Source: a virus (taxonomy: Duplodnaviria; Heunggongvirae; Uroviricota; Caudoviricetes). From it: a stretch of DNA of 8,765 nucleotides. A model generated the notes under the pieces. It saw only the letters and a program-made list of their open reading frames with translations. It did not search any database and was not told the origin of the DNA. The DNA is taken from positions 1-8,765 of IMG/VR virus record IMGVR_UViG_2778261170_000011; one strand, 5' to 3'. The position numbers and the translations under genes were made by a program. How positions within the stretch are numbered: the first letter of the stretch is position 1; each line of letters starts with the position of its first letter. Shown here in pieces: positions 1 through 1,743 of this stretch.

Positions 1-1743
1 ATGAAATACTCTAACAGCAATCTTATTATAAAAATAATACATCTACTTTCACAAAAAAGAGATGGTCTGATTTTGCTTGATGGGAGCTGGGGCACAGGAA
101 AGACTCACTTTATCAGAAAAAAATTCCCCAAGTACTATGATAAAAACATTTTCTATTATATTTCTTTACTAGGTATTAAATCCTTATCAGATTTCAAAGC
201 TAAAATTATAGATTGTTACTACCTGCAAGATATACAAACATTTAAATCCGGGCTCGAAAGTCTATCAGGGATAGGTAGCATTGCCAGCGGCTCACCTGCA
301 AGTGCCAATATTATTAACAGCATGTTTAATTCTATTGGTGCAAGTGTTAGAGAAAACATTTTATCAAAACTGGATGGTATTTTTATATTGGATGATATAG
401 AGAGAATATCCGAAAAATCATTAGTTAGTGAAATTTTGACATATTGCCATTCTCTTTATATGTCCGAGATGAACTCAAATTTAGACTTTATTATTATTAC
501 CAATACATCAACTGAGTCTGGTTTAAAAATAGAACACAAGGAAAAACTCATTGCAGAAACACTTCATTATAATCCGCATCCAGAGGAAATATTGGATATA
601 GATATAATAAATGGAAAGCTTTCCCAATTCCCACAGGAAGATAAAATTCTCTTTGAGGATATAGTAAAAAATAACAACATAGTTAACATCCGTATTTTGA
701 TGCGTATTTTGGACACAGTTACGCCATTATATGAATACGTTAAATCATATCCTCATCTTTCTTGGCGAATACCATCAACAATTCTTTTAAACTCAATATG
801 CTCTTTCTTCATTTTATTATTTTTGCATAATCACTCTCTTGAGGATCTTCTCAAGGACAAAGATCCAACTTTTTTATTAAACACCGAGAAATCAAGTGAT
901 AGTGAGAGAGTGCTATGGTTAGCATTGAATAATTACAAAATAAAACCTGAGATTAAAAGGTATTATAGCGGACAAGCTTCATTAAATGACATATTGGATG
1001 TTTTGTTTTATGAAGCAAAACGGCTTACTATGAGAGAAATTGCAATATCAGCACGTCCAGAATTACATGAGATAAATGAAAAGGAACTTTCAAATACACT
1101 TGTCGACTTAATTTGCCGTAAGATTGACTGTAATTTCTATGAATGGATAAAAGCGTTTCAGAATTATGAGTATTTAACCACACATAAATACCTACCAAAA
1201 TCACCAATTATAACTCTAAAGTTTGTCACTTCGATTCTGAACGGATTCACTGACAATGAAGTTGCAGAATGCTTTGAGCTATACTCACTTGATAGAAAAA
1301 ATAGCTTAAATAGTGGTTTTGAAGATAGCAAATTGCTGTACTCAATTTCATTTTACCGTTATGAAAGCACGATCAAAATGCGTGAACTCAACACTATTAA
1401 GTTGCAATTAGAATTGAATGGCTGGGCATCATTCAATGCTAACCAATTAACCACTTTAGATCCATTCGGAAATTATAAGCCGCTTGAAGTACTAGGTGTA
1501 TCATTTGTAACAAAATGCGTTTTAAAGAATTGGGCAGTTAATGATATTGAGCAATTTAGTTCTTTCTTGCGTAGCAACTATCAAATCAGCAACATAAAAC
1601 AATTCGCCACTAATGAAAAAAACAAACTTATTTATCTTAGTCAAAAACTTGATATTTTTTGCCTTTCCTATAAAGAAAGCTTTAAATTTGGAGCCATATA
1701 CGATCTAAACAGAACAGTTAAAATTGCCATTAACAAATTATGA
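1..1743 (+). CDS. P-loop NTPase, KAP-family-like (candidate defence/abortive-infection ATPase), 580 aa; possibly 5'-partial because the ORF starts at base 1 of the window
   Basis: Uninterrupted 580-codon ORF ending at TGA 1741-1743. Walker A GSWGTGKT at aa 28-35 (nt 82-105, GGG AGC TGG GGC ACA GGA AAG ACT). Walker B-like hhhhDD-x-ER (GIFILDDIER) at aa 126-135 (nt ~376-405), resembling the KAP DDLDR signature. Gly/Ser/Ala-rich segment between the motifs (aa ~84-116) and one hydrophobic stretch (ILLNSICSFFILLFL, aa ~259-273). Very AT-rich relative to the rest of the window (by eye). Family call not verified by HMM. Confidence 0.6.
   Translation: MKYSNSNLIIKIIHLLSQKRDGLILLDGSWGTGKTHFIRKKFPKYYDKNIFYYISLLGIKSLSDFKAKIIDCYYLQDIQTFKSGLESLSGIGSIASGSPASANIINSMFNSIGASVRENILSKLDGIFILDDIERISEKSLVSEILTYCHSLYMSEMNSNLDFIIITNTSTESGLKIEHKEKLIAETLHYNPHPEEILDIDIINGKLSQFPQEDKILFEDIVKNNNIVNIRILMRILDTVTPLYEYVKSYPHLSWRIPSTILLNSICSFFILLFLHNHSLEDLLKDKDPTFLLNTEKSSDSERVLWLALNNYKIKPEIKRYYSGQASLNDILDVLFYEAKRLTMREIAISARPELHEINEKELSNTLVDLICRKIDCNFYEWIKAFQNYEYLTTHKYLPKSPIITLKFVTSILNGFTDNEVAECFELYSLDRKNSLNSGFEDSKLLYSISFYRYESTIKMRELNTIKLQLELNGWASFNANQLTTLDPFGNYKPLEVLGVSFVTKCVLKNWAVNDIEQFSSFLRSNYQISNIKQFATNEKNKLIYLSQKLDIFCLSYKESFKFGAIYDLNRTVKIAINKL

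Follow-up and report, generated by a model that had tools for sequence, protein, structure and literature searches.

What does an intact, AT-rich NTPase gene do at the very end of a degraded lambdoid prophage? The question is raised by the IMG/VR virus record IMGVR_UViG_2778261170_000011 (Caudoviricetes), of which positions 1 to 8,765 were analysed; we call this whole stretch of 8,765 nucleotides the window. Its first open reading frame (ORF, positions 1-1743) encodes 580 amino acids (aa) with a Walker A motif, GSWGTGKT, and a Walker B motif, FILDDIER. An initial annotation had read both motifs, which are indeed present in the sequence, and had suggested a KAP-like P-loop NTPase that serves as a single-gene anti-phage system. 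We find that the gene is mobile prophage cargo, that its product is a single-polypeptide KAP-like NTPase predicted to be soluble, and that it is almost certainly functional and under selection. It is a reasonable defence candidate. Protection of the lysogen, or of the phage itself, against other phages is the best-supported reading of its role; it is unproven, and we put it at about an even chance. The family is already catalogued as a computational defence candidate and is not a new kind of system.

The ATG of the gene is the first base of the window, and it had been feared that the ORF continues upstream into a larger known protein. This is not so. Complete genomes show an in-frame TAA 60 nt 5' of the ATG, and the sole alternative start is a TTG one codon 5' of it; therefore the ORF is complete, and its being a fragment of a larger protein is ruled out. 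Identical DNA is found in 71 of 5,426 complete E. coli chromosomes, one copy in each, with the product annotated as 'P-loop NTPase fold protein' (WP_000877736.1). The exact protein occurs on at least 1,000 contigs, and its UniRef name is 'KAP NTPase domain-containing protein'. The ORF is, as was first noticed, far more AT-rich than the adjacent prophage genes: its GC content is 31.6% (29.1% at third codon positions), against 44.5-54.9% in the tail-fibre, lom and J genes. An Rfam scan of the window gave no match, and promoter and terminator scans of the region did not rise above the shuffled background.

The assignment to KAP-like P-loop proteins stands. The Pfam profile KAP_NTPase (PF07693) matches with 29 bits against a gathering cutoff of 20 (E 8e-7), aa 7-169 aligning with profile positions 6-192 of 293. 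The tested KAP signature (Walker A GxWGxGKT, Walker B hhhDDh[DE]R) is present, and its key residues are invariant in 50 distant relatives. NACHT and NB-ARC profiles of Pfam do not match the protein, and a search of NCBIfam gave no meaningful match. Only two PADLOC families, PDC-S49 and PDC-S20, are matched at E-values up to 10. The matches to PDC-S49 are those of the models PDLC05031 (E 6.9e-16), PDLC05029 (3.5e-13) and PDLC05030 (9.4e-7); among the PHROGs, the protein matches phrog_4740 (627 positions, E 5e-18).

Homologues are numerous. A word-indexed search returned 38 clusters, nearly all of them of 578-598 aa and of enterobacterial (Enterobacteriaceae) origin. With an exhaustive profile search the number of representative clusters rose to 254 at E <= 1e-10, and to 2,360 when the limit was E <= 1e-3. 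The majority of relatives in the profile search are full-length matches in proteins of 550-620 aa, and full-length homologues reach down to about 20% identity. Profile matches over positions 1-581 occur in proteins of about 550-620 aa that themselves match PDC-S49. Among 50 distant full-length relatives, 49 match PDC-S49 (best E 4e-92) and 42 match KAP_NTPase. Since both the protein and 49 of these relatives match PDC-S49, sequence comparison places the window protein in a divergent enterobacterial branch of PDC-S49 and phrog_4740. The earlier suggestion of a distinct clade thus gives way to families that have been catalogued and to a protein already named in UniRef. The window protein shares with PDC-S49 and phrog_4740 the size (about 580-625 aa), the two-part architecture and the stand-alone gene. 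It differs from PDC-S49 in that its C-terminal half is too diverged for the models, so that only the ATPase half aligns, and in that the gene represents an enterobacterial, prophage-borne branch of 32% GC. None of the KAP-like loci examined, a small sample, is embedded in BREX, DISARM or restriction-modification (RM) systems. The PDC set comprises 145 candidates obtained by 'guilt-by-embedding' in BREX, DISARM and type I RM systems, which its authors call untested (Payne et al. bioRxiv 10.1101/2024.01.29.577857). DefensePredictor left PDC systems out as unvalidated.

A full-length AlphaFold2 model (mean pLDDT 84, low confidence at aa 77-112) predicts an ATPase with a lid and a helical-repeat domain and with no recognisable effector. 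The core and lid reach to about aa 250, and the motif-less C-terminal region, first estimated at about 440 aa, is accordingly shortened to about 330 aa (aa 251-580). We propose that this all-helical, solenoid-like domain is a sensor or target-binding domain. Its invariant or near-invariant positions in the 50 distant relatives are W382, W511, F519, Y527 and E539; those of the N-terminal half are W30, G31, G33, K34, D131, D132, E134, R135, N168, E181, K182, N229 and R231. N168, at the end of strand 4, may be a sensor-1-like residue, and N229/R231, at the start of a lid helix, are candidates for a sensor 2 or an arginine finger. The core resembles that of the DNA-binding AAA+ proteins Orc/Cdc6, TnsC and MuB. 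Unlike the Orc/Cdc6/DnaA initiators, the window protein has no winged-helix or other DNA-binding fold detected in its C-terminal domain. No nuclease, protease, TIR or pore domain was found in the protein, and PDB sequences searched with a profile yielded no relative. A role as replication initiator or helicase loader is ruled out: the prophage, in which the gene is cargo, brings O/P-type replication genes of its own, and no DNA-binding domain is detected.

The Walker motifs are separated by 92 aa, close to the roughly 95 aa first reported, and the absence of a clear pair of transmembrane helices between them was also seen correctly. In a hydrophobicity scan with a transmembrane-grade threshold of KD-19 >= 1.6, the maximum between Walker A and Walker B is 0.85 in the window protein. 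None of 49 relatives reaches the threshold in this interval, with maxima below 1.5 in the insert described below, and 45 of them have no such segment anywhere. A lone hydrophobic helix near aa 257 of the window protein is not conserved in its hydrophobicity. The family is therefore predicted to be soluble, and a membrane protein is ruled out. Between helix alpha2 and the Walker B strand lies a Gly/Ser/Ala-rich insert, which sits where YobI/KAP-type proteins carry transmembrane helices. It is not hydrophobic and is modelled with very low confidence, and close relatives conserve it better than any other segment (70-89% identity). In relatives at about 30% overall identity it is only 17-22% identical.

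Several known systems invite comparison. KAP NTPases fused to C-terminal regions without known domains act as single-gene antiphage proteins in E. faecalis, according to a 2026 study; their activity requires Walker B as well as the C-terminal region and is not abortive (PMC13552941). The window protein is like them in architecture: it has an N-terminal KAP P-loop and a C-terminal region of about 320-330 aa without known domains, and it is carried on mobile DNA. Unlike the window family, EF_KAP has two predicted transmembrane helices. The E. faecalis proteins also differ in their Firmicutes origin, their linkage to small serine recombinases and C-terminal regions described as diverse (PMC13552941).

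PifA, the KAP-family protein of the F plasmid that excludes T7, has a similar Walker A (GAWGSGKT vs GSWGTGKT) and Walker B (VMDDLDR vs ILDDIER), a mobile element as carrier and a large helical C-terminal part. It is longer (741 aa vs 580), has a Walker spacing of about 145 aa vs 92, and is encoded in an operon with the repressor PifC. The kinship with PifA that had been supposed shrinks to the P-loop motifs: hhalign gives a probability of 94% over only 45 Walker A columns with a weak Walker B segment, and BLASTP against PifA of NC_002483 gives E-values of 0.03-0.4. The PADLOC PifA model does not match the window protein, and no pifC-like neighbour is present at the locus. KAP P-loop domains typically, though not universally, contain two or four transmembrane helices, which PifA itself lacks (PMC13001434); hence the missing transmembrane insert does not exclude the window protein from KAP. 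Tmn had been cited as a KAP-type relative and belongs to the YobI family: it is a transmembrane NTPase from a P2 hotspot that senses T2 RIIB, burns ATP, exports Mg2+ and causes plasmolysis (PMC13001434). The window protein resembles Tmn as a single-gene P-loop NTPase of a prophage hotspot, with a variable alpha-helical C-terminal part and an insert at the same place of the P-loop domain. Tmn, however, has two transmembrane helices inside that domain and forms a membrane decamer, whereas the window family is predicted to be soluble and is KAP-like. With STAND/Avs-type proteins the window protein shares an NTPase joined to a solenoid. It differs from them in that Walker A is already reached at aa 28 and no enzyme fold follows C-terminally, hence no effector domain, and in the lack of a NACHT or NB-ARC match.

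The genomic setting identifies the gene as cargo. In complete genomes, thrS and espL1 enclose a complete lambdoid prophage of about 47 kb; its integrase gene is found at the espL1 end and is oriented away from the attachment site (att), opposite to lambda int. The same thrS junction is found in 69 of the 71 genomes that carry the KAP-like gene. The core gene thrS is its left neighbour, divergent and 738 bp away, and core-genome homology stops about 600 bp upstream of the ATG. Comparison of both prophage ends with the empty K-12 site gives an att duplication of about 110 bp (L001:14290-14400 and L003:9700-10060), which is unusually long, and the phage side of att carries tandem TTGGTACACAA repeats. 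Within the prophage the KAP-like gene comes last, with the tail-fibre genes on one side and att on the other, and it reads from att toward the tail genes. This placement and orientation match those of the lambda b region. Upstream of it are only a pseudogene described below, att and then thrS, so that the partner genes thought possible there do not exist. Other lambdoid prophages share the backbone only from about position 2221 of the window onward; the variable segment therefore extends from att to about 2220, and the KAP-like gene is its only long ORF. The first backbone gene, a small ORF of phrog_1443, marks the exact point where diverse lambdoid prophages start sharing sequence. Separate horizontal acquisition of the gene, as originally supposed, agrees with these observations: it is foreign, AT-rich prophage cargo.

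The flanks of this cargo are informative. In E. coli, the stretch between att and the KAP-like gene holds a pseudogene of a YedK-like SOS-response-associated peptidase (SRAP), 75-600 bp left of window base 1 (L001:14400-14925), in which residues 89-205 are recognisable despite stops and a frameshift. The AT-rich DNA starts right at the stop codon of this pseudogene, where a promoter-like TTGAGA-17-TAAGAT (L001:14915-14943), conserved in Citrobacter, is found. On the other side, a remnant of the 3' end of a umuC-like gene remains. The full order of SRAP, KAP-like gene and convergent umuC-umuD is seen in Citrobacter (70% identity of the KAP-like protein) and in lineage P0027 (39%), and in P0020 (58%) only umuDC stands beside the gene. 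Compared between lineages, the flanks show 76-97% protein identity and 49-55% GC, and the KAP-like gene shows 36-59% identity and 32-33% GC. The slot is occupied by a 135-aa phrog_914 gene in E. coli 210205630 and is empty in XJ5.2; in D9 and D4 a matched span shortened by about 500 bp is consistent with an empty slot. Slot loci with conserved flanks are L005:9302-13472, L012:7259-11468, L098:6950-9802 and L101:6001-8304. Because conservation is much higher in the flanks than in the gene, and other prophages have nothing or a different gene in the slot, the linkage to SRAP and umuDC is positional and the gene is exchangeable cargo; for the same reasons an obligate partnership of the gene with SRAP/umuDC is ruled out. 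In the window lineage both flanks have decayed and the KAP-like ORF is intact.

The ratio of nonsynonymous to synonymous substitution rates (dN/dS) of the whole gene is 0.08-0.12 against the Citrobacter and Cronobacter orthologues. The ATPase half alone gives 0.04-0.08, and the C-terminal half, which evolves about twice as fast, gives 0.11-0.15. All orthologues have 31-33% GC, and their flanks and hosts have 48-57%. The gene appears to be autonomous: across ten contexts no neighbour is conserved, which agrees with the single-gene character assumed by the initial annotation. In Citrobacter, P0020 and P0027 it lies at the ends of lambdoid prophages, and the Cronobacter copy lies in a phage-free islet. 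Six relatives from marine Gammaproteobacteria (22-26% identity over the full length) are solitary ORFs, surrounded by housekeeping genes or placed with an integrase on one side and a Toprim protein on the other.

Several lines of evidence speak for defence. By analogy, membership in PDC-S49 suggests it, since PDC families were defined from genes found inside BREX, DISARM and type I RM systems, and the combination of KAP with a C-terminal region has its precedent in E. faecalis (PMC13552941). The gene is also the last one in a lambdoid prophage and an AT-rich occupant of an exchangeable slot. Its low dN/dS with a faster C-terminal half, its lack of a conserved neighbour, and the AAA+ core with invariant Walker motifs, N168 and R231 joined to a solenoid point the same way. 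Finally, its ORF is intact though the flanking SRAP and umuC genes have decayed and the prophage has lost its morphogenesis genes.

A number of points weigh against this reading. The moron position that had been proposed is correct in so far as the gene occupies a slot for variable cargo that lies within the prophage and distal to its tail-fibre genes, but the slot is not specific for defence. Its equivalents in other prophages hold sitABCD (Nissle 1917), pinQ/pinR with ydfK, gtr-type O-antigen modification genes, an acyltransferase or no annotated gene. The 70 neighbours of the six distant marine relatives are mostly housekeeping genes with a few weak PADLOC matches and no defence-island context. 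Because of this slot content and these housekeeping surroundings, we call defence best-supported and not proven. The direct match to PDC-S49 is confined to model positions 27-258 of about 620, the N-terminal 40% or so with the ATPase half. A tblastn search of 50,697 sequenced phage records found no homologue of the gene, and therefore no BLAST-level homology to lambda Ea59, Ea47 or Ea31. A literature search found no paper that mentions PDC-S49 or WP_000877736, and thus no published phenotype of PDC-S49. The output step is conjecture, as no effector domain is recognisable. Moreover, AT-rich cargo in E. coli may be silenced by H-NS.

Other roles must be weighed against defence. The gene might be a moron of another kind, which serves lysogenic conversion or benefits the phage, for example as an early-leftward-operon factor expressed through att in lytic growth like the ea genes of the lambda b region, or as a regulator of a host process. 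The contents of the slot and its equivalents (sitABCD, gtrABC-like genes, an acyltransferase, umuDC) would suit such a role, as would the distant relatives among housekeeping genes and the orientation of the gene, which after circularisation lies downstream of the early leftward genes. We nevertheless consider this explanation unlikely, though worth serious attention, because the family sits in a candidate set of defence-embedded genes and KAP with an uncharacterised C-terminus is a validated defence architecture (PMC13552941). The gene is also intact both in a prophage incapable of making particles and in the phage-free islet of Cronobacter, and is therefore independent of lytic growth. The recurrence of SRAP, KAP-like gene and convergent umuC-umuD in Citrobacter and P0027, with umuDC in P0020 and remnants of both flanks in E. 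coli, could instead indicate an accessory ATPase of a prophage SOS or DNA-damage-tolerance module, and the likeness of its core to DNA-binding AAA+ proteins (Orc/Cdc6, TnsC, MuB) would fit. Such a role is very improbable. SRAP and umuDC adjoin without the KAP-like gene where the slot is empty or otherwise filled; flanks and gene differ in conservation as described and by about 20 GC points, as expected of exchangeable cargo. The Cronobacter copy and the six marine relatives have neither SRAP nor umuDC adjacent, the E. coli flanks have decayed around an intact gene, and the C-terminal domain shows no winged-helix or other DNA-binding fold.

Defence might also act at the membrane, as with PifA or Tmn, through leakage, ion export or plasmolysis, the insert at aa 77-122 being an inducible membrane element derived from a transmembrane hairpin. 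The P-loop signature shared with PifA lends this some colour, as does the insert by virtue of its position, its unusual conservation among close relatives and its low-confidence model. It is improbable, given that in none of 49 relatives does the insert hold a transmembrane-grade segment, that the helix near aa 257 is not conserved, that similarity to PifA is confined to the Walker motifs, and that no PADLOC family beyond PDC-S49 and PDC-S20 was matched. That the gene is a selfish or decaying passenger without function in E. coli, such as a silenced AT-rich remnant, is hardly credible. The prophage of the window is degraded, AT-rich DNA is a typical target of xenogeneic silencing, and promoter-like sites are no commoner than in shuffled sequence; yet dN/dS is about 0.1 in both halves, at least 1000 contigs and 71 complete genomes carry the 580-aa frame uninterrupted, and the catalytic motifs are invariant.

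If the gene does provide anti-phage defence, it may work as follows. The KAP-like protein would act alone, expressed from its own promoter just downstream of the SRAP remnant. The fast-evolving C-terminal alpha-solenoid would bind a trigger made by the phage. Binding would switch the N-terminal Orc/Cdc6-like AAA+ module, whose fold and intact catalytic motifs are observed, to an ATP-bound and probably oligomeric state. In the last and least certain step, the protein might sequester or remodel the bound target in an ATP-driven manner, or consume ATP. We favour these outputs because no nuclease, protease, TIR or pore domain is present; catalytic breakdown of DNA or membrane lysis is less probable. 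Given defence, this scheme of sensor, switch and sequestration has somewhat less than an even chance of being correct.

A broader proposal is speculative and probably does not hold in full. The gap between SRAP and umuC next to att in enterobacterial lambdoid prophages could be an as yet unrecognised immunity hotspot with conserved flanks, comparable to those of P2 and P4, in which the soluble KAP-like NTPase is one exchangeable defence allele. Its mode of action, new for the family, would be effector-less, ATP-driven capture of a phage protein by the Orc/Cdc6-like module, with the help of the conserved Gly/Ser-rich insert that stands where its relatives have a transmembrane hairpin. The SRAP and umuC flanks, being conserved, could also be used as bait for further prophage cargo. 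Should the gene prove active, PDC-S49 would no longer be just a computational candidate, and a tractable E. coli prophage would offer a validated single-gene defence of this family; KAP NTPases with uncharacterised C-termini would extend to a soluble, effector-less branch in Gram-negative bacteria; how an ATPase and a solenoid stop a phage would become a mechanistic question. Should it prove inactive, it would be a documented case in which prophage position and a KAP domain do not suffice for a defence call.

Table 1. Coordinates of the features of the window (strand + or -; a dot marks a non-stranded feature)
Feature	Position	Strand	Remarks
KAP-like P-loop NTPase ORF, complete, 580 aa, WP_000877736.1	1..1743	+	divergent PDC-S49 / phrog_4740 member (by sequence)
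AAA+/STAND-like ATPase core with helical lid, aa 1-250	1..750	+	predicted structure
Walker A GSWGTGKT, aa 28-35	82..105	+	W30, G31, G33, K34 invariant in 50 distant relatives
Gly/Ser/Ala-rich insert, aa 77-122, between helix alpha2 and Walker B strand	229..366	+	
Walker B FILDDIER, aa 128-135	382..405	+	D131, D132, R135 invariant, E134 nearly so, in 50 distant relatives
Further conserved ATPase positions: N168, E181/K182 (HKEK), N229/R231 (NxR)	502..693	+	invariant or near-invariant columns and secondary structure
C-terminal all-alpha solenoid-like domain, aa 251-580, without known fold relative	751..1740	+	
Non-coding AT-rich tail of cargo segment, 35% GC	1744..2220	.	lambdoid backbone homology begins at about 2221
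54-bp remnant, 3' end of umuC-like gene	1786..1838	-	78% identity to Citrobacter cassette
Small hydrophobic ORF, phrog_1443, first backbone gene	2225..2533	-	right boundary of variable slot
Small conserved backbone ORF, phrog_1361	3611..3892	-	flanks the tail-fibre gene together with the phrog_1443 ORF
Tail-fibre gene, 793 aa	3892..6273	-	
J, only C-terminal 368 codons	7000..8106		
Terminase large subunit gpA fragment	8160..8720		Pfam GpA_ATPase positions 134-237

The prophage of the window itself is not the complete version. Within positions 7000-8765, an internal part of the tail-tip gene J is joined straight to an internal fragment of gpA, with the junction at about 8187. The whole block of head and tail morphogenesis is lost, and the prophage must therefore be defective. 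This junction was found in one piece in no complete E. coli genome of the collection. The lom (Ail/Lom) gene is broken as well (6332-6932, minus strand): one ORF spans profile positions 1-161 of 199 and a second, overlapping ORF of 52 aa holds the C-terminal ...GVGYKF, whereas intact relatives have a single lom gene of 199 aa. The tail-fibre gene contains a long Ala/Ser/Thr-rich repetitive stretch at 5139-5978 (SETNAK(S/T)SQTAAKTSETNAK...), which coincides with a rise of GC to 56-58% and an extreme AT skew of -0.5 to -0.65 and produces long spurious ORFs in several frames.

The intact version of the prophage in NZ_AP045802.1 (L003:20324-24000 and 30370-30663) carries other cargo annotated in RefSeq, namely emrE, the serine recombinase ybcK, proteins with a P22AR C-terminal and a BstA C-terminal domain, a lipocalin, a YbgA family protein and iss. 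BstA is a known abortive-infection defence of prophages.

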